A stretch of 63,664 bases of DNA, counting the filler, from Malassezia furfur (Eukaryota), in NCBI GenBank assembly GCA_052055015.1. It is 19 parts of 19 records of this genome, joined end to end, with 100 filler letters (N's around TTAATTAATTAA, not from the genome) between each part and the next. Parts side by side here need not be neighbours in the genome. Positions count along the whole stretch, not along the records: positions 27,304 to 30,573 come from JBQJIT010000789.1; 18 more parts are not named here. One strand, written 5' to 3'. A program made the translations under genes and the position numbers. The notes beneath the pieces are model-generated. The model searched no databases. It was not told where the DNA came from and worked only from the letters and a program-made list of their open reading frames with translations. Shown here one piece after another: positions 12,231 through 63,500 of the stretch; the stretch's first letter is position 1, and each line of letters begins with the position of its first letter.

Positions 12231-13629
12231 GCCGCGGGCGTGCGGCGGAACAGCGCACGCAGGCGGTGCCGCCCACGCGCATCGCTGCGCGTGTCTACGG
12301 GTGCGTCTTGGGCGGGTGCAGCGCTCGGCGCCGCGGGTATACTCGGCGCCGCCGGCACCGCGAGCGACGGCGCGCTGCGGTTCGCCGGCGCATGGCGCAT
12401 GGGCGGCGCGGCGCGCTCCGCGGGCACACCAGCGTCGTGCGGCGACGAGGGCATCGATGATGCGAGTACGCGCCGCTCTTCGGACCCCGGCGCGAGCAGT
12501 GGCGGCGGCGGCGGCGCACGCCGGCGCGTCGTGGGCGCGGACGACCCACTGCTCCGCGGCGACGCACGGCCGCTTGCGAGCGTCTCGAGGGCGAGCACAT
12601 CGAGCTCTGCGACGGGCGCTGCAGGCTCCGGCGGTGCGGGCGGCCAGGACGGCATGGCGTCGCCGTCAACGGCCGCGGCGGCCGCCGACTGCATCTGCCC
12701 GAGCTTGAGCAGCGTGTGCAGCGCCGCGTCGCTCGTCTCTGCGTGGAACACGTCGCCCTTGTGCGTGTGCTCGGTGACGAGCACCTCGGTGTGCGCCGCA
12801 CCGCCGCCGATCGGCGCAACGACGGGCGGCGTGCGCGCATCGACGACCCACTCGGCCGCCAAGCACCTGCGCGCAAGCTCCATCGTGCGCGGCGCCGTAT
12901 TGCTCCAGTCGCCGTAGCGCACAATGCTGTCGAGCACGTCGCGGATCGCCTCACGCTTGTACACCACGGTGCACAGCTGCGTCTGCGTCAGCAGCGCGGG
13001 CAGCACCCGCAAATACACCTGGCGCAGCAGCTCGCGCTGCTCCGCAAGGTCGGTGATCTGCCGCAGGAAAATGTCCACCAGCACCTTGAGGTCGTTCATG
13101 TAGAAGTAGCTCGCGGTCTCGGGCATCGCAAACAGCGCATCCAGCAGCTTGAGCACGAGCAGGTGGAAACGGCACCCCGCGGCGTCCGCACACGGCGTGC
13201 GGTTCAGCATAAACACGACGTTCTCGGCAAACGTCCGCGTCGCATGCGCACGGTCACGAATCACCGCCAGGATGCTGAACGGCGCGGGCGACGTACCCTG
13301 CACCGCCGCCAGGTACTGCTCGTGCAGCGCAAGGAGCAGCTGCGTCACGAGCAAACCGAGCGTCTCGTCCTCGAGCGTGCGCGTCGCCTCGGCCTCGTCA
13401 AACAGGTGACACACGAACGGCTCGCCGATGCATGCTGCGTTAGGGGGCGACGTACCCAGCTCCGCTTGCCGCAGGCGGACGGTGCACAGCAGCTCATAGA
13501 GCAGCGCGAGCGCCTTGTACTGCAGCCACACCTGCAGGCCCTCATTCGACAGGTGGTCCTCGATCACGCGCGGCTGCGTACGCCGCGGCACCGCGCCGGG
13601 CAGCGGCAGCGCGGGCGCAACGCTGCCCG
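12231..13629 (-). CDS. LDB17: Ldb17/SPIN90-like Arp2/3 activator (DUF2013), 5'-partial
   Basis: LLALHEQY, TFAENVVFMLNR, YFYMNDLKVLVDIFLR and Pro-rich tail RRAPPPPP; probable 21-nt in-frame intron 13435-13455. The 3' end is uncertain (formal ORF stop at 11891). Confidence 0.85.
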
Positions 13630-15186: not shown

Positions 15187-15311
15187 GGCATANNNNNNNN
15201 NNGCAGGCGCGTCCGTGCCGTGGATTGCCGCGCCGCGCGTGCGCACGCGCCGCGGTTCGAATTTGCCCGCGCGGTCCTAGGGTGCACGCGGCGGGGTGCG
15301 TATCGCCCAGA

Positions 15312-20530: not shown

Positions 20531-22043
20531 GGCCTCCCCCCCCGCGTCCTCGCGGGCGTCGTCGGTGCCCGAGGCGGCGGCAGAGGCGGCGAGTGGCTCG
20601 CCGCGGGCCCCCTCGCCCGCCGCGGACGAGCTCGGGCCCGACTTTGCCGCGTTTGTGCACGCCAAGTCGGCGGTGATCGAACGTGTGCTGGACGAGGACT
20701 ACGACGTGCTCACCGACTATACCCGTGTGCCGTCCGACGCCGACGTGAGCGGCACGGAAACGCTGCGGCATGTGCACACCTTCTTTGACGCTGCGCTCGA
20801 GACGCGCGCGGTGATGGACGTCGACTGGTCGACGCAGCACCCCGAGCTGCTCGTCGCGGCGTACAACCGGAGCCGGGCGCCGGCGAGCGACGCCGACGGC
20901 CTCGTGGCCGTGTGGAACGTGCACCTGCGCGAGCGCCCCGAGTTCACCTTCCAAGCGCCGGTACGTGCATCACTGACCCAGACGGACGTCACGGCGGTGC
21001 TCGCCTCGCCGTTCCACCCCACGCTGCTGGTCGGCGGGACGTACAGCGGGCAGATCCTCGTGTGGGACACGCGGCAGCGCGCGCTGCCCGTGCAGCGCAC
21101 GCCGCTCGCCTTCTCGCCCGGCGCGGGCAGCGGGCACTGTGCGCCGGTGTACTCGCTGCGCGTGGTCGGCACCGGCGCGGCGCACCAGCTGGTCAGTGCC
21201 TCGACCGACGGGCTGGTGTGCACGTGGGCGATGGACCTGCTCGCGCGCCCGCAGGAGTCGCTGCTGCTCACCAACCCGCTGCACCCGCGCAGCGCCGAGG
21301 TCGGCGTCACGTCGCTCGATGTGCCCGCCGACGATGCGACGCGCTTCCTGCTCGGCACCGAGGAGGGCAACGTGTACGGCGCCGCGCGCTACGACCGCGC
21401 GGGTGCCGCCGCGGGGCTCGACACGTCGCGGGTGTACGTAGGGCACGCGGCGCCCGTGACGCGCCTCGCGTGCCACCCGAACCCGCGTGGGCGGCGCGCG
21501 CCCGTCGACTTTTCCGCGCTGTTCCTCACCGCGAGCATGGACTGGTCGACGGCGCTGTGGCGCGCCGCGGACCGCGCGCCGCCCCGCCCGCCGCCCGCCG
21601 CGCCGTACCACTACCCCCACGCGAACGCGCGCATCGCCACGAGCACGCGCACGAATCCGCTGGCGTTCCGCGGGGCGGCCGGCGCACACGCGCCGTGGAC
21701 GGCCGTGGCGCCCGTGTGCCGCTTCGAGAACCAGCTCGACTACGTGATGGACGTGTGCTGGCACCCCCACCACCCCGCCGTCTTTGCGCAGGGCGACGCG
21801 GCGGGGCGCGTCGAGCTGTACAACCTGAATGCGAGCTGCGAGCGTGCGACGCTCGCGACCACGACGCCCGGCGCGCGCGGCGTGAACCGCGTCGCGTGGG
21901 AGCGCAGCGAGCCCGCGACGCGCCTCGCCGTCGGCGCTATGGATGGGCGGGTGCATCTGTACGAGGCGCCCGAGGCGCAGGTGGCCCCGCGGGGGGACGC
22001 GGAGTGGACCGCGCTGGAGCAGGTGCTCGCGTCCGTGGCGTAG
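20531..22043 (+). CDS. PAC11: Cytoplasmic dynein intermediate chain (WD40), 5'-partial
   Basis: VIERVLDEDYDVLTDY, DVDWSTQHPELLVAAY, GLVAVWNVHLRERPEFTF and GGTYSGQILVWD; 21-nt in-frame intron 20961-20981. Confidence 0.9.
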
Positions 22044-22693
22044 CGCCGCGGCGCGCGCGCGGCGTGGTGAACGGTGTGTCGCCGTACACCACCTCGCCCG
22101 CGCGGCGCAGGCGCGGCGCCGCGGCGGCCTCGCGCACGACGCGCTCCGCATAGGCGTGCAGCGCCGCACCGTCGCGCGGCATGGCCGCACTCCGTAGCGT
22201 GAGCATCCCATCGAAGCCCTCGGGCTTGTCCGCCGTGGGGCGCACGAACGCGCGCGCAAACATGCCGAGGATGCGCATCGCGTCCTCGGGCCGCCGGATC
22301 GACGGGTGCCCGGTGCGCTGCGCGAGGCGCGCGCGGCATTCCTGGGTGAGCGGGCGGGCGGCGTACCTCGATGGGTGTGTCGAGCACCACGAGGCACGTG
22401 TGCACCGCGGGCCCGCCGGGGTGCGCCGCGCGGAAGTCGGCCGCGAGGCGCAGCCACTCGGCGCGCTGCCGGTAGTCGATGTTGGTGCGGTCGATCACGA
22501 CGTGCTTGCCGTCCTCGAGCGCCTGCCGCGCGCGCGCGTGCACCGCCGCGCGGCGGCGCAGCTCGTCCTGGTTGCACCGCACCCAGTGCTCCGGGTCTGC
22601 GTCCTCGATGGCGTGCGCCACTGCGTCAGCCGCCCACGTACACGTCGACTTGCCGCTGCCGACCACCCCGCACAGCACGACGAGCTGGAGCAT
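21937..22693 (-). CDS. Small P-loop kinase (AAA_33 / polynucleotide-kinase-like)
   Basis: LCGVVGSGKST|LA, CNQDEL, VVIDRTN...QRAEW, E|ECRARLAQRTGHP and EGFD; introns 22621-22641 (21 nt) and 22342-22366 (25 nt). Confidence 0.85.
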
Positions 22694-22736
22694 GAAGGAT
22701 CGGGCGGAGATCGGGGGGAGGGGGCCGGAAGCGGGC

Positions 22737-23820
22737 CTACGGGAGCTGCCCTTTGATGTCTACCTTGCGGAAGCGCGCGGCGGCGCGCGCGAGCGGCTCG
22801 ACGGCGCGCTTGGTGTCCCAGTGCGCGCGCGCGGGCGCGTCGGCGTCGGCGGACGGGGTATACAGCGCGGCATCGAGCTTCGCGAGGAACGCATGCGCCC
22901 CGTCCGCCGACGCCCACCCGAGCTCGCCGGCGACGAACGCGAGCGGCACGCTGGGGCGCACGCTCTTGGCGAGCACGAGCAGCGCCTGCACACGCTCGCG
23001 CTCGACAAAGTGGTCCATGATGTACGCGTTCATGTTGGGCGCGTCGCGGTACAGCACAAAGAACGCATGGTAGTTGCCCGTGCGCATCGCCGTGCGCACC
23101 GCCAGCGCATGCGCGACGGGTGCCTCGGCCTGCACCGCGGGCGTGAGCTCGGCCATGAGCGCGTGGACGTCGCGCTGGTTGCGCGTGTGCAAGAGGTACA
23201 AAATGCGGTACGCGAGGAACTCGACGGGGTGGCCCGCCAGGCCGTACGCATACAGGCCGCGCAGCTGCGTCTGGCACTGGTTGTACTCGCCCAAATCGCC
23301 CATCTCGAGCGCGATGCGCGCGTGCGTCTCGTAGACCCGCACGGTGAACTCGTTCTTGATCCGCTGCACCGTCAAGTCCTGCCGCATGCTCTTGAACTGG
23401 TCGCACGTGTACGCATAGTTCTTCTCGGCCTCCCACTTGGACGTGAGCAGCGCCAGCGTCCGCTCGAGCGTCGCGAGCGGGCGCACCGTCTTGGGGTCCG
23501 GCGCCGAGGTGAGCCGCAGGTAGGGCTTCTCGAGCTTCGTCGAGGTGCCCACCACCGTGTACTCGTCCCAGTCGATCACGTTGGGGTCCGCGGTGGGGGG
23601 CGCGGGCGTGGCGCCCAGGCGCCCGCCGAGCGCCGTCGTGGCCAGCGCCGCGTGCATGTCCTCCGCCTGCGCGCGCTCAAACGCCGCCTGCTCCTCCTCG
23701 AAGCGGCGGAGTCGCATCGCCTTGCGGCTCGGGTCCTCGAACGACGCGGCGGTCTTGGGCGCCTTTTTCTTGCCGCGCGTGGGCGCCGCAACGGGCGGTG
23801 CGGCAGGCGGCACGGCGGGC
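22737..23820 (-). CDS. THP3: SAC3/GANP-family PCI protein Thp3/LENG8, 5'-partial
   Basis: VGTSTKLEKPYLRLTSAPDP, CDQFKSMRQDLTVQ and YETHARIALEMGDLGEYNQCQ. Confidence 0.88.
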
Positions 23821-27203: not shown

Positions 27204-27303
27204 NNNNNNNNNNNNNNNNNNNNNNNNNNNNNNNNNNNNNNNNNNNNTTAATTAATTAANNNNNNNNNNNNNNNNNNNNNNNNNNNNNNNNNNNNNNNNN
27301 NNN

Positions 27304-27906
27304 CTGCGCTCGCACGTGCAGCAGCTCGAGACGCAGCTCGCGCTCAAGGAGCAGGGCGACGCGTCGGTGTCGGCGACCGACATTGAGCTCACGACGCTGC
27401 GCGAGCAGCTCGCACACCTCACCACCAAGCACGAGACCGCCGAGGAAGAGCTTGCCGAGAGCCGCGACGCGCTGCAGCGCGCACACGACGAGGCGCAGCA
27501 GCGCAGCGCCACGAGCGACACTGCGGCCCAGGCGCTCGAGGCGCAGCTGCACGCCGCGCAGGCCGAGGCGCAGCAGCACAAGGACGCGCTGGCGGCCGCC
27601 GACGCCGAGCTTGCGCGCGTGCGCGAGGCACTGCACGCCGAGCAGGCCGCCCTCGAGCACGAGCGCACGACGATCGAGACGATGCGCGCCGCGCCGCACG
27701 ACACCAACACCGCCGAACTCCACGCGAAGATCGCGGCGCTGGAGCGTGCGCAGCGCGAGCAGGCCGAGGCACACGCCAAGGAGATCGCGGAGCTCGAGTC
27801 GCTCGTCGAGTCGCGCATCTTCCGGGAGGACGAGCTAGAGACCGAGATGGAGCAGCTGCGGAGAGAGCGCGACGAGGCGCGGCAGGCGCAGGCGCCCATG
27901 CCATAG
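27304..27906 (+). CDS. Coiled-coil C-terminal fragment, probably CLIP-170/Tip1/Bik1-like
   Basis: Heptad-rich sequence with EIAELESLVESRIFREDELE. Confidence 0.55.
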   Translation: MRSHVQQLETQLALKEQGDASVSATDIELTTLREQLAHLTTKHETAEEELAESRDALQRAHDEAQQRSATSDTAAQALEAQLHAAQAEAQQHKDALAAADAELARVREALHAEQAALEHERTTIETMRAAPHDTNTAELHAKIAALERAQREQAEAHAKEIAELESLVESRIFREDELETEMEQLRRERDEARQAQAPMP

Positions 27907-27919
27907 CGGGAAGAATACG

Positions 27920-28534
27920 TCACGGGTCGCCTTCGAATCCGCCCAGGTCCGTCTGGCGGCTGCGTCAGCACGGCACGTACCGGATGCGCCCAGGGTGCAC
28001 AATCGACGCCGCGGCATACCGTGCGGTGCTGGGGGGGTGCGCCGCAAGCAGCTCGCGGTACTTGGCGCGCTCCGCGTCGAGCGCCGCATGGGACGCACGC
28101 ACCGCCGCCTCCAGCTCGGCCACCTGGCGCTGCGTGTACTCGGTCAGGGCGTGCACGAGGCGCGCGCTGTACACGCTGCTGGCGCGCTCGTTCGCCGGCG
28201 GCGCCTGCACGATGAGCGGCGTCGGGAGCGGCACGCGCACCGTGCACACCTCCTCCGGCACCTCCTGCTCTGTGTCTTCGTCGGGCGTGTCGGGCTCCGA
28301 CAGGGTAAGCGACACGCCCGGCCAGTGCTCCACGACGCGGTGCGCCCACGCCGCGCCGTGAGCGCCTGCCGTGGTGGGCCCCCGGGGCACACGGACAATC
28401 CACCACGACGCACGGCGCGCGTGCTCGCCGACGTTGCGCACGACGCCTATGTGCACGCCGTCGCCCTCGACAAGCACGCTGGCCGTGTACGAGACGCCCT
28501 GCGCGTGCACAATAGCGCTGTGCGCCGTCGCCAT
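27920..28534 (-). CDS. 197-aa protein, candidate PAXX/XRCC4-superfamily NHEJ factor
   Basis: ATG at 28534; 21-nt intron 27960-27980; beta-rich head, short coiled coil, tail SIVHPGRIRRQTDLGGFEGDP*. Confidence 0.55.
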
Positions 28535-28591
28535 GGTCCCTGCACACGCCACGTGCGCGCCGAAAAAATTTGGCGGCTGCTCTCTGCCACG

Positions 28592-30201
28592 ATGGTGCGC
28601 GTGAAGAAACGTGCTAGCAAGCGCCAGACAACCAAGCAGCGCGAGAAGGTGAATCGCAAGGTGCGCGAGCACCACCGCAAGCAGCGCCGCGAGGCTAAGC
28701 GGAATCCGAACCCGCAATGGCGCTCGCGCCGCCGCGACGATCCAGGCATCCCCAACAGCTTCCCGTACAAGGAGCAGCTCCTCAACGAGATCGAGCAGAA
28801 GCGCCGCGTCGCCGAGGAGCAGCGCATGGGCGTGCAGCAGCCCACCGAGGCACAGACCAGCGACGTGTCTGACGACGACGACGAGGAGCACCAGCCTGCG
28901 CCGGGCTACGAAGAGCCGCTCGATCTGCCGCACGCGCCGATGCTGCGCACGCCGCTCGAGGACGTGCTCGCACAGAACAACGACGTCGGCGTGCTGGTGG
29001 TTGCGCTCGATGCGCGCGACCCATCGGCGTTCCGCAGTGCATGGCTCGACGCGCAGCTCACGAAAAAGAGCCCCGAGGTGGTCCTGGCGCTGACCAAGGC
29101 GGATCTGGTGCCCGCCGAGGTGCTAACCGCGTGGGTGTATGCGCTGCTCGACACCAAGCGTGCCGTGTTCCCCGTAAGCGTGCCGCCGTCCACGCAGGCG
29201 CAGGGCATCGACGCACTGGCGGAGTACCTTGCGCCCAAGCTCAAGAAGAAGGCCGCCGCAGTTCTAGGCCTGGAAAACGCTGGAAAGACGGCGCTGGCCA
29301 CCGCGCTACAGGGTGCCTTCCAAGAAAAGGACGGTGATGAGCTCGTGTACGACACGCCGGCCATGATTCCCATGCACGCCTCGGTGCCGGCCCCCGCCGA
29401 CAGCGAGGACGAGGACGAGGAAGACGAGGAAGACGAGGACGATGAGGACGAGGACGATGAGGACGATGAGGAAGATGCACAGAGCGAGCTTGCGCGCTTG
29501 GAAAAGCAGCGGAACAAGCTCCTGTGGATCCTCGCGCGGAATCAGGGCAATCTGCAGCGCTTCAAGGACCCGCCGCAGCTGGTGAGCACGCTGCTTTCGC
29601 GCGTTGCGCACCCCGAAGACCTCATGCTAATCTACGGCACGCCCGCGTTTGGCTCGTTTGTGCCTGCGCAGGCGAGTCTTGACGAGGATGCGCCGGCGGA
29701 CGAGGCGCTGCTGGAGCAGGAGCTGCTGGCGCAGGACAAGGCGCGCGCAGATACCGAGCAGTTCCTCATTGGCGTCGCACGGTCCGTCGGACGGCTGAAG
29801 CGCAAGGGCGTACCGGACACGTTTGGTGCCGCGCGCCGGATTCTGCGCGACTGGTCGCATGCGGGCCTGGCCTACTATGCCAAGCCGCCCGTCACGCGCA
29901 AGGCGGTGCAGACCACGGGCACCAAGGCCGACCAGGCGCGGTGGGACAAGGCGCAGGCGCAGGTGGACCACATTGCCGCGGCGGTGCTGCCCCGGAAACT
30001 GTGGCGCGAGCAGTGGGAGAAGCGCGAGCTGCGTTTGACCGCGCTGCCGCAGGGCCCGCTTGCGGATGAGCCGCTCGTGTTTGCGCCTGTGCCCGACGAG
30101 GAGGACGACGAGGACGAGGACGAGAATGTGCCGGTCTATGGCGGTGACGACGACGAGGAAGAGGTGGATGACGAGGTCGAGGAAGAGGACGAGGAAGAGG
30201 A

Positions 30202-30573: not shown

Positions 30574-30673
30574 NNNNNNNNNNNNNNNNNNNNNNNNNNN
30601 NNNNNNNNNNNNNNNNNTTAATTAATTAANNNNNNNNNNNNNNNNNNNNNNNNNNNNNNNNNNNNNNNNNNNN

Positions 30674-48555: not shown

Positions 48556-49912
48556 CTACGGCGCCAGCTCGAGGAACGCACGCGCAACGAGGAGCCGGTC
48601 GTCGGTCGACAGCGCAAGCGGCGTGCCGGCCGCGACGTACAGCACGACGCCGGGGCGCAGTGCGTGCGTCTTGCCGTCCGCATGCAACGTCCCGCTGCCC
48701 TCGTACGCCAACACGATCGAGGGGCCCTGCACCCCGCGCTGCTCGCTGCACTTCGCGTCCTTCTCGAGGATGGTGACCAGCACCGAGAACTCGTCGATCG
48801 GCGGGTCGTACAGCAGCGACGGATTCGGCTGCGCCGAGTCCCCGTCCCACTTTTCGGCACGCAGCAGCTGGTCGACGGCACGCGCACTTTGGTAGGTGAG
48901 CATGTCCACGAGCACGTCGACGTCGCGCGCCTTGGGCGTCAGACCGGCGCGCACGACGTTGTCCGACGCCGCCATACACTCGAGGATCTGGCCCGAGAGG
49001 TAGGCGTGCGGCTCGTCGGCGCCGAGGAACAGCGCCTGACCCTGCTCGAGGTGCACGACGTTCAGAAAGTAGGTACACAGCACGCCAATGTCTTTGGGGT
49101 ATTGCGTGTTGAGGCGCACCACGAGCCGCGCAACGTCGTCGCTCACCTCGAGCGCCTCGCCGTGGTCCAGCGCGGCCTGGTAGCGCTCCGCGAGCTGCGT
49201 GACCACCCGCTCGTACGTGTCGGTCTGGCAGTGCATCAGCGCGGCAAACGCGTGCTTCAGTGCGTCGTGCACGCGCGGCTCATTGCCCGACTGCCCCGCG
49301 TCCCACTGCGCGTCCTGGACGTGTGCGGCGTCGTCGAGCTCGGCCTGCAGCGCATCGTCGGCGCCCATCGCCTCGCGCAGCTCCGGCACGCTGTGCACAA
49401 ACTGCGCGATTTCGCGGACGGGCCGGAAGCCACAGAAGCCCTCAAAGGTGTTGATCGCGATGGCCATCTCGGGCTTGTGGTTCGCGTCCTTGTACATGTC
49501 GGGCTTCTCGGCATGCAGGCGCTCGGCCAGCTTCTTGTCGGGATGCGCCTGGATGCTGAGCGCCTTGGCGATGCTCAGCACCTTGAACAGGAACGGCAGG
49601 GCGCCGTCTTCGGGCACGCCGTACTTGTCGACGACCGCCGAACCGATCAGCTGCGGGTCCTTGCGCAGCTCATCGTTCAGCAGCGGGTGTTTGTCGTCGC
49701 TGCACACCACACGCAACGGCAGCGTCGGGTGCGTGCCCATCCACAGCTGCGTCAGTGGCGCGACGTACCTCGGCGTACGGCTTGTCGGCCTTGCGCTCGA
49801 ACTGCAGCTGGCACGTCGCCTCTGCAAGGTCCGCACAGATGCTATTCTTGTCGCCGCCTGGCACGCCCCAGTCGTACGACTGCACGCCCGGAATCAGCTG
49901 GAATACGGTCAT
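48556..49912 (-). CDS. PMI40: Mannose-6-phosphate isomerase, class I
   Basis: QSYDWG, PYAE|LWMGTHP (22-nt intron 49747-49768), LSIQAHPDK, YKDANHKPEM, HAYLSG and MAASDNVVRAG. Confidence 0.96.
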
Positions 49913-60507: not shown

Positions 60508-63500
60508 ATGGACGCGTGGGACGACGAGGCGCTCGATGACTGGTACGCGTCGGACGTGGCTTCCTCCGCCGAAGACTCTGCTGCTGAGCAGGAGGCAGCC
60601 AGTGAGACATCTGAAGTTGGCCAGGTCGACGATGACGCGCGCCTAGACCTGCTCCGCCCGCCCATCCTGTCCATCTGTGCCGCATTGGGCGGCTACGAGC
60701 ATGTCGACGTGGATGGGCGCCTGGAACTTGTGTACCGACTCGGAGACGACTGCCTAGGTATGTGACACATTCACACAGAATGCCTGCGCGATTTGCGTCG
60801 TCTCTGGCGCCAGGACGACACAGACAACAGCCGTGCCGTCGCGCGTGTCTTTGCCGAGCTGGGCACGCTGCATAATGACCTGATCCCTATTCTGCTGCAC
60901 ACGGCAGGTATGGGCGAGAAGGCGGACAAGATTGCGCTCGCTTGCAGTATGTTACCCCCCTGACCACAGCCGACTTGATTACGGCGCTCACATGGCCGAT
61001 TGACTGGAACGCCGAGGTACATGACATTGTGACGCGCGAGGAGGAGGAGGACGGCGTGCTTTCCAAGCTGGTGGGTCTGCAGGCCGCACAGGTGCAGTAC
61101 AAAGCGTCGGTGTTGCGCGTGCGCGCCAAGGAGCAGCGCCTTGTAAGTCGGACGGTGGTTGGGTGCGTGATGCGTCACTTGTTGCTGCCCGCGCTGGCCA
61201 AGCCGCGTGTGGACCGCACGGAGCGCGACACAGGCTTGATTGGCATGTGCTTGCACCTCTTCCGCAACCTGCTCGCGATCCGCGACCCTGTTGCCCACAC
61301 GACGAGCAGCGCGGCGGTCGTGGCCAACGCGACGCTGCAGAGTCTGCTCGTGGAGCAGCTCGAGGAGCACTTTGTGCTCGACACACTGCTGATGCTCGCG
61401 AGCAATGCCGACACAAAGGAGTATGAGGCGTGGGTGCCCGTCGCCGCCGACTGCGTGTACCAGCTGTACATTGGCTCGGATGTACACGAAATCGCAACCG
61501 TCGAGGCGGCGACGGCGCGTGCGTCATCCAGCGCGCTTGCTGCCTCGCTCGACCATGAGGCGCGGCAGAAGCGGCATGGGGTGAACAATGCGCGGCACTC
61601 GCGCTTCGGCACCACCATTCAGTTCCGTGCGCACGACGGATCGCTGCGTGTCGCGCGGCGTCCCGCGTCGCTGGTCGAGTCAGTGCGCCGTCTGGAGCAG
61701 GACATCGCCGACCGCGGGCGCCGCAAGATTTCGCGCAAGCGGCGCGCGACGGAGCGCGGCGCGCCGCAGCGCTACACGGCGTGGACGAGCGGCGCACGTG
61801 CGGTGCTCCGGCGGTGGGCCGACCGGTTCGTGCAGGACGGCGCGTTTGGGGTGCTGGAGCAACAGTATCTCAAGGATATCCACGCAGAGCGCGAGCGCGT
61901 CGGCGATCTGGACGCGGCACGGTGCAAGGCGCTGCAGCTCGCGACCTTTTTCCTGGACTATTTCCGCGCGCGGCGGGCGAACGACGCGTCGGCGTTCGGC
62001 TTTGGGCTCGTGGCTGCATGGCTCGAGCCGTGGGCGTTCCGATTGGCGCGCAGCCGCGCGGCGATGGCGCTCGAGGCGAAGCAATGGCTCGAGTTTGTGG
62101 CCGCCGTGCGCCTCTGGACGTCGCTGCTGTGCCTCTTGCACGCGCTCGCGCACGGCTCGGCAGAGGAGCGGCAGGTGGCCGACGAGCTGCAAAACACGCT
62201 GTACTACGATGGCGACCTGCTTGACACGGCCCTGCAGGTAATGCACGCGTACTCTGCGCAAAGCTTTGCGTGCCTCGAGGCGGTGCTCGACTTTGCGTAC
62301 ACCATGCCGCGCCTCCTCGAGAAGCATGCGGCGCGGCACGAGTACGTGTTTGTCAAGGCGCGCCACGGCGGACACGACGATGAGGAGTCGGTGTCGCGCA
62401 GCGAGCGCCTCTTCCGCTTCCAGACCTTCCAGCGCGCCATGGCTACGACGCGCCTCGCGCACGTCTGCACGCAGTACCTCGTGCGCTGGCAGGACTCGGC
62501 GCAGCCGCGCACAATGCTGCCGCGCCTTGCGAGTGTGGTGCACCGCATCGCCATCAAGGCCGAGCGCCCTGCGCTTTTCTTTGCGGCCAAGACGCGCGAG
62601 GTATGGGTGCGCCTGCTGCGCGGCAGCGACCAGGCGCTCGCGGCGTGTGACGCCGAGGCCACCGCGACACTGGTCAAGCTTGCGCATTACATTGAGCGCC
62701 AGTTTGCCAAGCTCGACGGCGCGCTGCAGGAGGCCTTTGACGCGAACAAGCGCCCGGCGCGGGCGCCCAAGGCGGACAAGATCCCTGCCGAGATCTGCGT
62801 GCGCCCGGGCCTCGAGCACAGCGAGCAGATCGGCGTCGCGGTCGGCCTACTCGCCGAGGAGCACAAACTTGCCGAGGTCACCTGGGTCAAGTTCCACCTC
62901 GAGCTCGCGAGCGCCGCGCGCAAGGCGCTCATGGCGTCCGACGCGGACGCCGACCCCGCGGCACCAAGCGCCGCGGTGCAGGAGCAGTTTGCTGTGCACA
63001 GTACGTCGCTTTTCTCACCCAGCCCTCACGACCGATTCGGACGCAGTGTGGACCGAAGTCACACGCAATCCTGCGCTCAAGCTGCTGCTGCGCCTCGTGG
63101 GCCTCGAAGCGAGCGCCGAGGAGGCACACTGGGTCTGGACCGTGCCGCGCAGCTGCACGCCCGCGTCGCTCGATCGCGACGCACGCATCATCGACCAGTA
63201 CCTCGCACAGCCGCTGCTGATCGAGGGCGAGCTGCGCGACCAGGTGCAGCGCGTGCGTGCGCCGCGCGCGCGCACCGACGCACCCAGCGACGCGGCGGAC
63301 GACGCCGCGCGGCCGCGCAAGCGCACGCGCACCGACGCCGATGGCCGCACGGCCAAGAAACGCGCGCCGCGCATCCCTCGCTGGCTCGACAACGAGTTCA
63401 TCGAGGACAGCGACGAGGAGCTTGCGTTTGCGATGGCCGATGTGCCGCGCACGAGCTCGCGCAGTGCCTCACCGCCCGCGCTGTTTGCCGAGGCACGCGA

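Follow-up and report, generated by a model that had tools for sequence, protein, structure and literature searches.

A candidate PAXX-like protein of Malassezia furfur and the 21-nt intron that precedes its conserved C-terminal end

The window analysed here is a 63,664-nucleotide (nt) stretch of DNA of the skin yeast Malassezia furfur (GenBank assembly GCA_052055015.1). Positions 27920-28534 of its minus strand carry what reads, from sequence comparison, as a two-exon and previously unannotated Malassezia gene; removal of a 21-nt intron replaces the ending YVPC of the unspliced product by RQTDLGGFEGDP and gives a protein of 197 amino acids (aa). Predicted models place this protein in the XRCC4 superfamily, as a divergent member whose nearest structural and architectural relative is PAXX. 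It is probably a fungal PAXX-like factor, likely a homodimer, whose tails would bind Ku70 and stabilise Ku-bound ends during NHEJ (non-homologous end joining).

In the mechanism proposed, the stalk of the protein would form a parallel coiled-coil homodimer, each tail would dock on the von Willebrand-type (vWA) domain and core groove of Ku70, and the dimer would bridge or stabilise two Ku-bound DNA ends. Dimerisation, Ku70 binding and the NHEJ role are what we infer for this protein. For M. globosa, Table 3 of PMC11936186 gives both Ku70 and Ku80 as present, which is a weak lead.

Gene structure

The gene is read on the minus strand as follows.

27981..28534, minus strand: exon 1, from the ATG at 28534; residues 1-184 and two bases of codon 185
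27960..27980, minus strand: predicted phase 2 intron, GTACGT-GCCGTG-CTGAC-G-CAG; donor GTACGT, branch site CTGAC, acceptor CAG
27920..27959, minus strand: exon 2, 40 nt; supplies the third base of codon 185 (R), followed by RQTDLGGFEGDP and the TGA stop

The unspliced open reading frame (ORF), 27965..28534, starts at the ATG at 28534 and encodes 189 aa; its end is GRIRYVPC followed by a stop (...ASIVHPGRIRYVPC, stop), as the first-pass annotation had read it. Beyond this stop the same frame reads on as RSRQTDLGGFEGDP to a TGA stop at 27920-27922. The 21-nt element (GTACGTGCCGTGCTGACGCAG, 27960..27980) splits a codon after its second base, and the in-frame TGA of a retained intron would end the protein at ...GRIRYVPC. 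When the element is removed, exon 1 (554 nt, 28534..27981) and exon 2 (40 nt, 27959..27920) add up to 594 nt, i.e. 197 codons and a stop; the protein then ends in ...AAASIVHPGRIRRQTDLGGFEGDP (last residues ...HPGRIRRQTDLGGFEGDP). This count agrees with the 197-aa product that had been claimed for removal of the 21 nt, and the range first given for the gene, 27920-28534, is exactly the coding sequence with its stop. The GC content at third codon positions is 0.89 in the coding frame and 0.77 and 0.54 in the other two frames. The position of the start Met is common to all orthologues.

Evidence for the 21-nt intron

The comparative case that the 21-nt intron is real is strong, and the orthologues are decisive in it. 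The M. furfur gene model P0051 (GLX27_001822), 82% identical to the window ORF, ends in ...ASIVHPGRIRRQTDLGGFEGDP, and the 12 residues encoded by exon 2 are identical to its C-terminus (12/12). The same tail motif ends the models of M. sympodialis (MSYG_1052), M. vespertilionis, M. psittaci and M. sp. CBS 17886, and of one unnamed protein. In the read-through model P0002, the residues past GRIR are in another frame than the true tail, so that the tail is in frame there only if the transcript is spliced. The related-locus search returned a single locus with an alignment of the tail, the low-GC Malassezia contig L001. Its orthologue encodes GRIRRQTELGGFEGD and ends in ...SLVHPGRIRRQTELGGFEGDSPTL followed by a stop, with GRIRRQTE contiguous and no intron between GRIR and R; this intron-less gene spells the junction peptide predicted from splicing and thus gives comparative support for the intron.

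Other short introns of the window served as controls. The intron-like pattern that was counted is GTnnGY...CTRAY...YAG, 18-25 nt, with 200 first-order Markov shuffles as background. The window contains 13 such elements; the shuffles contain 3.9 +/- 2.1 (maximum 10). Seven short-intron sites of the window are listed below, with the genes that they interrupt where these were recognised; those in the M16 peptidase and Timeless genes interrupt conserved domains that splicing restores.

1615-1639, minus strand: 25 nt, in an M16 peptidase gene; the upstream exon matches positions 1-43 of the Peptidase_M16 profile up to the last residue of the exon, and the downstream ORF takes up the profile again at position 53
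49747-49768, minus strand: 22 nt; interrupts phosphomannose isomerase (PMI) between ...KPYAE and LWMGTHP
60947-60969, plus strand: 23 nt; the upstream exon matches TIMELESS positions 10-63 and the downstream ORF positions 115-270
9109-9129, plus strand: near-copy of the 27960-27980 element, also 21 nt
22621-22641, minus strand: near-copy of the 27960-27980 element, also 21 nt
13435-13455, minus strand: short-intron site
20961-20981, plus strand: short-intron site

A Pfam scan of the upstream exons alone gave no match for the PMI gene, the P-loop gene and the gene with the intron at 13435. One of the short introns comes after a P-loop motif, G-V-V-G-S-G-K-S-T, at 22643-22759(-). The window holds a population of introns of 21-25 nt, of the form GTAnGT-(5-8 nt)-CTRAC-(1-3 nt)-CAG. 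In the curated annotation of M. sympodialis, as summarised in Table 2 of PMC5389616, 5,350 introns have a mean length of 30 bp, and 99% have RNA-seq support. The orthologue tails, the intron-less L001 gene and the controls in the window together uphold the intron that the first-pass annotation had proposed.

That the intron is unused, the real product being the 189-aa protein ending in YVPC and the downstream tail a coincidence, is so improbable that it hardly enters the account. Public models P0001, P0003, P0006 and P0014 do stop within the retained intron, as such a product would. Against this, the 12-residue tail is conserved across the genus, stands in the gene models of the five named species cited above, is contiguous in L001 and is off-frame in P0002 unless spliced, and short introns of like form are validated at other sites of the window.

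Intron positions in this gene vary among Malassezia species. The window species has an intron only between GRIR and R. The L001 orthologue has introns of 32 nt (1279-1310, after ...STLSE) and 79 nt (1428-1506, after ...KYRE), and the read-through models P0003, P0004, P0010 and P0016 indicate the KYRE intron in further species. Four deposited models are apparently mis-spliced: P0058 (M. obtusa), P0052 (M. furfur CBS 14141), P0014 (M. pachydermatis) and P0006 (M. yamatoensis). In two of the four the first patch of the tail is skipped (...ARR[RQ]TDLG...); the other two terminate within the intron, which they retain (...GRIR[YC]V..). Mis-splicing of this kind leaves the functional tail missing or damaged in databases.

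The C-terminal tail

The tail comprises two patches, each with an apparent counterpart in the Ku-binding motif of human PAXX.

27989..28006, minus strand: patch 1, S177-I-V-H-P-G182; counterpart of human PAXX S184-L-I-N187-P-G
27932..27949, minus strand: patch 2, D189-L-G-G-F-E194; encoded only once spliced; counterpart of human PAXX G-G-V199-D-F201-D

According to PMC10413649, residues 177-204 of human PAXX bind the vWA/core groove of Ku70 through two patches, and the interaction with Ku is abolished in peptides with S184A, N187E or V199A+F201A. The human motif given there is ...E-S184-L-I-N187-P-G-F-K-S-K-K-P-A-G-G-V199-D-F201-D-E-T; the printed primers encode ...P-G-E-S-L-I-N-P-G-F-K-S-K-K-P... 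and ...K-K-P-A-G-G-V-D-F-D-E-T-stop. The human PAXX tail sequence quoted in the first-pass annotation matches these mutagenesis primers and the residue numbers.

The Malassezia consensus is S-[IL]-[VAL]-[NHC]-P-G-R-I-[RKQ]-R-x-x-[DE]-[LV]-G-[GE]-F-[ED]-[GE]-[DN]. By inspection, it retains in order the S, the N/H, the P-G, a basic linker, the G-G and the terminal F of the human motif; the distance from S to F is 16 residues in Malassezia and 17 in human PAXX. Of 67 proteins collected, the patch 1 pattern S[ILV][AVIT][NHC]PGR[IV] occurs in 18 and the patch 2 pattern [DE][LVAF]G[GE]F[ED] in 11; the remaining ones are models cut at introns. The two patches are 12 residues apart in all proteins that match both patterns (6/6) and also in P0060, which has S-L-L-H. 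Every orthologue gene model that extends to the C-terminus keeps the motif at an unvarying spacing; the loss of the motif in orthologues, which the first-pass annotation had said would speak against its reading, is not seen. A crude reckoning from residue frequencies, which is no calculated statistic, makes it very unlikely that such a motif would occur by chance at the C-terminus of a protein of about 200 aa with a PAXX-like fold.

Predicted fold of the head and stalk

The AlphaFold2 (AF2) model of the window ORF was built on an alignment of 18 sequences (pLDDT 88.3, pTM 0.76). Its topology is four strands, a helical insert, three strands, one helix (116-165) and a tail of low confidence. The predicted elements are the following.

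28190..28534, minus strand: head, residues 1-115, of seven beta strands (3-11, 14-23, 26-33, 44-50, 75-78, 97-101 and 107-111); a helix (59-69) is inserted behind strand 4
28400-28405, minus strand: W44-W45 in strand 4, invariant in a 9-sequence alignment
28274..28291, minus strand: D82-T-P-D-E-D87, a conserved loop of acidic character between strands 5 and 6
28040..28189, minus strand: stalk, residues 116-165; a single long helix that ends in the near-invariant L-D-x-E-R-x-K-Y-R

The stalk helix is Ala-rich, is predicted with a pLDDT of 96-98 and is not followed by fold-back helices. For the M. sympodialis orthologue, which is 36% identical, AF2 gives a model (pLDDT 84.6) with a stalk helix at 112-168, then coil of low confidence. 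Both models have the topology of the XRCC4 superfamily: a beta-sandwich head, a helical insert after strand 4 and a long helix directly after the head. The beta-strand head with Trp described in the first-pass annotation corresponds in the model to the seven strands and W44-W45.

Both models were compared with 48,161 chains of the Protein Data Bank (PDB) by VIA-align. Ranks 1-16 for the window model and 1-12 for the M. sympodialis model are all XRCC4-superfamily chains. In another VIA-align comparison, all 50 matches listed are members of the superfamily or XRCC4 fusions; the head was aligned to the heads of CCDC61, PAXX, SAS-6, XRCC4 and XLF. PAXX chains (Arabidopsis and human) hold ranks 2, 3 and 8 for the window model and ranks 1-3 for the M. 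sympodialis model. The main matches are given with their score, number of aligned residues (window model) and root-mean-square deviation (rmsd, in Å).

Window model, CCDC61 head 6hxt_A: 9.8; 94; 3.3
Window model, Arabidopsis PAXX 8p26_A: 9.3; 116; 3.4
Window model, 9cq3_G: 8.3; 122; 4.1
M. sympodialis model, Arabidopsis PAXX 8p26_A: 10.6; 2.7
M. sympodialis model, human PAXX 3wtd_A: 9.7; 3.0
M. sympodialis model, 9cq3_G: 9.7; 3.1

Chain 9cq3_G is aligned at 16% identity, over a residue range identical to that of the PAXX chains 3wtd_B and 8bh3_M. XRCC4 and XLF score 7.5 and 6.3 with the window model; after PAXX, the M. sympodialis model gives CCDC61 8.9, SAS-6 8.3 and XRCC4 8.2-8.3. Alignments to PAXX cover head and stalk at low rmsd, and those to XLF that include the stalk have an rmsd above 9 Å. 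The predicted structure therefore appears closer to PAXX than to XRCC4 or XLF, head-stalk angle included. These rankings are in favour of the XRCC4-type head proposed at first; together with the conserved tail, they also lend support to the original interpretation as PAXX, which is among the best structural matches of the models.

The W-W pair and the D-T-P-D-E-D loop are better conserved than the remaining head. Residues D76, T77, P78, E80 and D81 of the loop (P0005 numbering) are invariant in the alignments, and the looser expression [DE]TP[DES][EDS][DE] is found in 45 of the 67 proteins collected, a set with many truncated models. It is a speculation that the loop could be a CK2 site, a proline-directed phospho-site or an FHA-type docking site.

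Comparison with known families

PAXX (C9orf142/XLS, PF15384; human and Arabidopsis thaliana) and the Malassezia protein as modelled have in common a size of about 200 aa (197 here), an N-terminal beta-sandwich head, a short stalk (about 50 residues here), no fold-back helices and a C-terminal tail (flexible and of about 30 residues here). Identity in the structural alignments is only 13-16%. Patch 2 is L-G-G-F in Malassezia and G-G-V-D-F in PAXX; patch 1 has mostly H in Malassezia and N in PAXX. The Malassezia family adds the invariant D-T-P-D-E-D loop and the W-W pair of the head.

XLF (Cernunnos/Nej1, PF09302) shares the head and coiled coil of the superfamily and a Ku-binding peptide, predicted for the Malassezia protein, at the extreme C-terminus; its match to the Malassezia model has a lower Z and a higher rmsd, and no Pfam match was found. 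It is functionally redundant with PAXX in mammals, and its motif binds Ku80, not Ku70 (PMC10413649). It is told apart from PAXX by fold-back helices and by the head-stalk angle, according to a preprint (10.1101/2023.05.26.542399). XRCC4/Lif1 (PF06632) is a larger protein, and its ligase IV-binding coiled coil is much longer; it has no Pfam match here. CCDC61 and SAS-6 are aligned to the head of the Malassezia model only (94-102 residues).

Family distribution

When 1,835,955,588 representative proteins were searched exhaustively with a family profile, 18 family members came up at E <= 1e-3. A word-indexed profile search taken to E <= 10 yielded 20 proteins; the weakest of them has 1.8e-20, and none falls from there to 10. 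Neither search found members outside Malassezia. The named matches are all Malassezia proteins called "hypothetical protein" and are without a Pfam domain; they belong to M. sympodialis, M. furfur, M. obtusa, M. yamatoensis, M. caprae, M. equina, M. pachydermatis, M. vespertilionis, M. psittaci, M. restricta and M. sp. CBS 17886. At short introns, many of the public models break off or shift frame. The conserved blocks of the family are the W-W of strand 4, the acidic D-T-P-D-E-D loop, the L-D-x-E-R-x-K-Y-R that closes the stalk, and the tail.

No Pfam family was found in the window ORF at E <= 10, and neither PF06632 (XRCC4) nor PF09302 (XLF) matches any of 21 family proteins at this threshold. 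Searches of PDB chain sequences gave matches at chance level (ASA7, beclin-2, chorismate synthase, CFAP144).

In the ESM Atlas, the first neighbour of the whole protein that bears a family name is a PAXX cluster (0.82), followed by XLF clusters (0.80). The nearest neighbours are unnamed: Basidiomycota clusters at 0.89 and 0.86 and a plant cluster at 0.87. All whole-protein scores lie below the trust line of 0.9 and are leads only; the tail alone (P0051 residues 145-202) gave no usable match. These neighbours are a hint of a distribution beyond Malassezia, not evidence for it.

Alternative identities

Several results weigh against the assignment to PAXX. The Pfam PAXX profile PF15384 is reached by only one of the 21 family proteins, at 13.6 bits (E = 0.05) for a cut-off of 25; the collinearity of this protein, P0018, with the profile (residues 187-288 against positions 85-187 of 194) is a weak lead in favour of PAXX. 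Searches of PDB chain sequences with the family profile, the tail profile, P0018 and the window ORF found no PAXX chain at E <= 10. With Foldseek, the best E value against the PDB is 1.6e-3, none being <= 1e-3; the top rows are CCDC61, XLF, SAS-6 and XRCC4, no PAXX chain is among the matches listed, and PAXX surfaced only with VIA-align. Where human PAXX has N187, H stands in place of N in most family members. The end of the tail, basic then hydrophobic, also resembles the Ku80-binding motif of the XLF type. The linker between stalk and patch 1 is only about 10 residues long, compared with about 30 in human PAXX, in which the coiled coil and head stop near residue 144 and the motif starts at 177 (PMC10413649).

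The Malassezia orthologue of XLF/Nej1 would be an XRCC4-fold dimer with its C-terminal end on Ku80 and its head on XRCC4/Lif1. The superfamily fold is common to XLF and to the PAXX-like protein, some fungal XLF proteins are of about 200 aa, the basic run followed by L-G-G-F resembles the Ku-binding end of XLF, and the XLF clusters of the ESM Atlas are near the PAXX cluster. In a plant case described in the preprint 10.1101/2023.05.26.542399, the roles of PAXX and XLF are able to merge in one protein. The fold-back helices of XLF are absent after the stalk in either AF2 model, and the identity as XLF is judged quite unlikely. An XRCC4/Lif1 orthologue, the obligate partner of DNA ligase IV, is far less credible still. 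PAXX outscores XRCC4 in both AF2 models, PF06632 matches 0/21 family proteins, and the stalk helix has about 50 residues in both models, too short to extend to the ligase IV-binding stretch of the XRCC4 coiled coil. To our knowledge, XRCC4 has no terminal Ku-binding motif.

A scaffold with the XRCC4 fold, specific to the genus and with a job other than end joining, would bind non-Ku partners through its tail and its D-T-P-D-E-D loop. The confinement of the family to Malassezia by sequence fits such a protein, as does the fact that the most conserved segments (W-W, D-T-P-D-E-D, L-D-x-E-R-x-K-Y-R) have no documented PAXX counterpart; SAS-6 and CCDC61 are examples of the XRCC4 fold in non-repair roles. 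These two are, however, centriole or centrosome proteins with long coiled coils, several times longer and found in organisms with centrioles, and Dikarya are without centrioles. Size, head-stalk geometry and the bipartite tail indicate PAXX in particular, and the scaffold is considered unlikely.

The PAXX-like factor could also have a wider role, an extension that is offered as improbable. An ancient PAXX would have been retained in Malassezia, and perhaps, in forms that have diverged beyond the reach of HMMER, in other Basidiomycota, as a compact hybrid scaffold. Its tail would bind Ku70, and its probably phosphorylatable D-T-P-D-E-D loop would recruit a second repair partner, as the acidic phospho-sites of XRCC4 recruit FHA-domain proteins. 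One dimer of the 197-aa protein would then cover roles of PAXX, XLF and the XRCC4 tail that are split elsewhere, as proposed for plant PAXX. Patch 2 exists only after removal of the 21-nt intron; retention would therefore give a Ku-blind form and could tune end joining.

Novelty and significance

The preprint 10.1101/2023.05.26.542399 places PAXX in Filozoa, Caenorhabditis elegans, amoebae, ciliates, excavates and plants; fungi go unmentioned in the text covered here, and its supplementary table and figure may list fungal entries. Full-text literature searches pairing PAXX with fungi found no description of a fungal PAXX, and the papers on Malassezia genetics that were found make no mention of Malassezia NHEJ genes. 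If the assignment is true, a PAXX-like factor in a fungus would close a gap in the account of how end joining evolved, the loss of this accessory factor in Dikarya would not be uniform, and PAXX could be studied in a genetically tractable yeast. Malassezia genetics relies on Agrobacterium T-DNA and Cas9; knowledge of NHEJ factors would aid the making of strains with less random integration. Introns of 21-25 nt appear to cause the loss of functional C-terminal motifs from public gene models, several orthologue models here being affected (ending in the retained intron or omitting patch 1).

Neighbourhood of the gene

The window is fungal DNA with 68.8% GC, and its gene content consists of ordinary eukaryotic housekeeping genes: M16 peptidase, Sec16, CrcB, aminotransferase, GNL3L/Grn1 GTPase, trehalose-phosphate synthase/phosphatase, CPSF_A protein, BRO1/ALIX, phosphomannose isomerase, ARID and Timeless, among others. 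It contains 1,594 N: 18 pairs of 44-N runs about 3.37 kb apart (e.g. 27204-27247 with 27260-27303, and 30574-30617 with 30630-30673) and one 10-N run (15193-15202). None lies inside the PAXX-like gene; neighbouring ORFs are interrupted, e.g. the coiled-coil gene whose end is at 27906. This has the look of regular masking in the sequence as supplied, and not of biology.

The divergent GNL3L/Grn1 GTPase gene starts at 28592, 57 bp (28535-28591) from the ATG of the PAXX-like gene. The convergent coiled-coil gene ends at 27906, 13 bp (27907-27919) from the stop of the PAXX-like gene. With gaps of 57 and 13 bp, untranslated regions must overlap. The gene order around the PAXX-like gene is also kept in L001.

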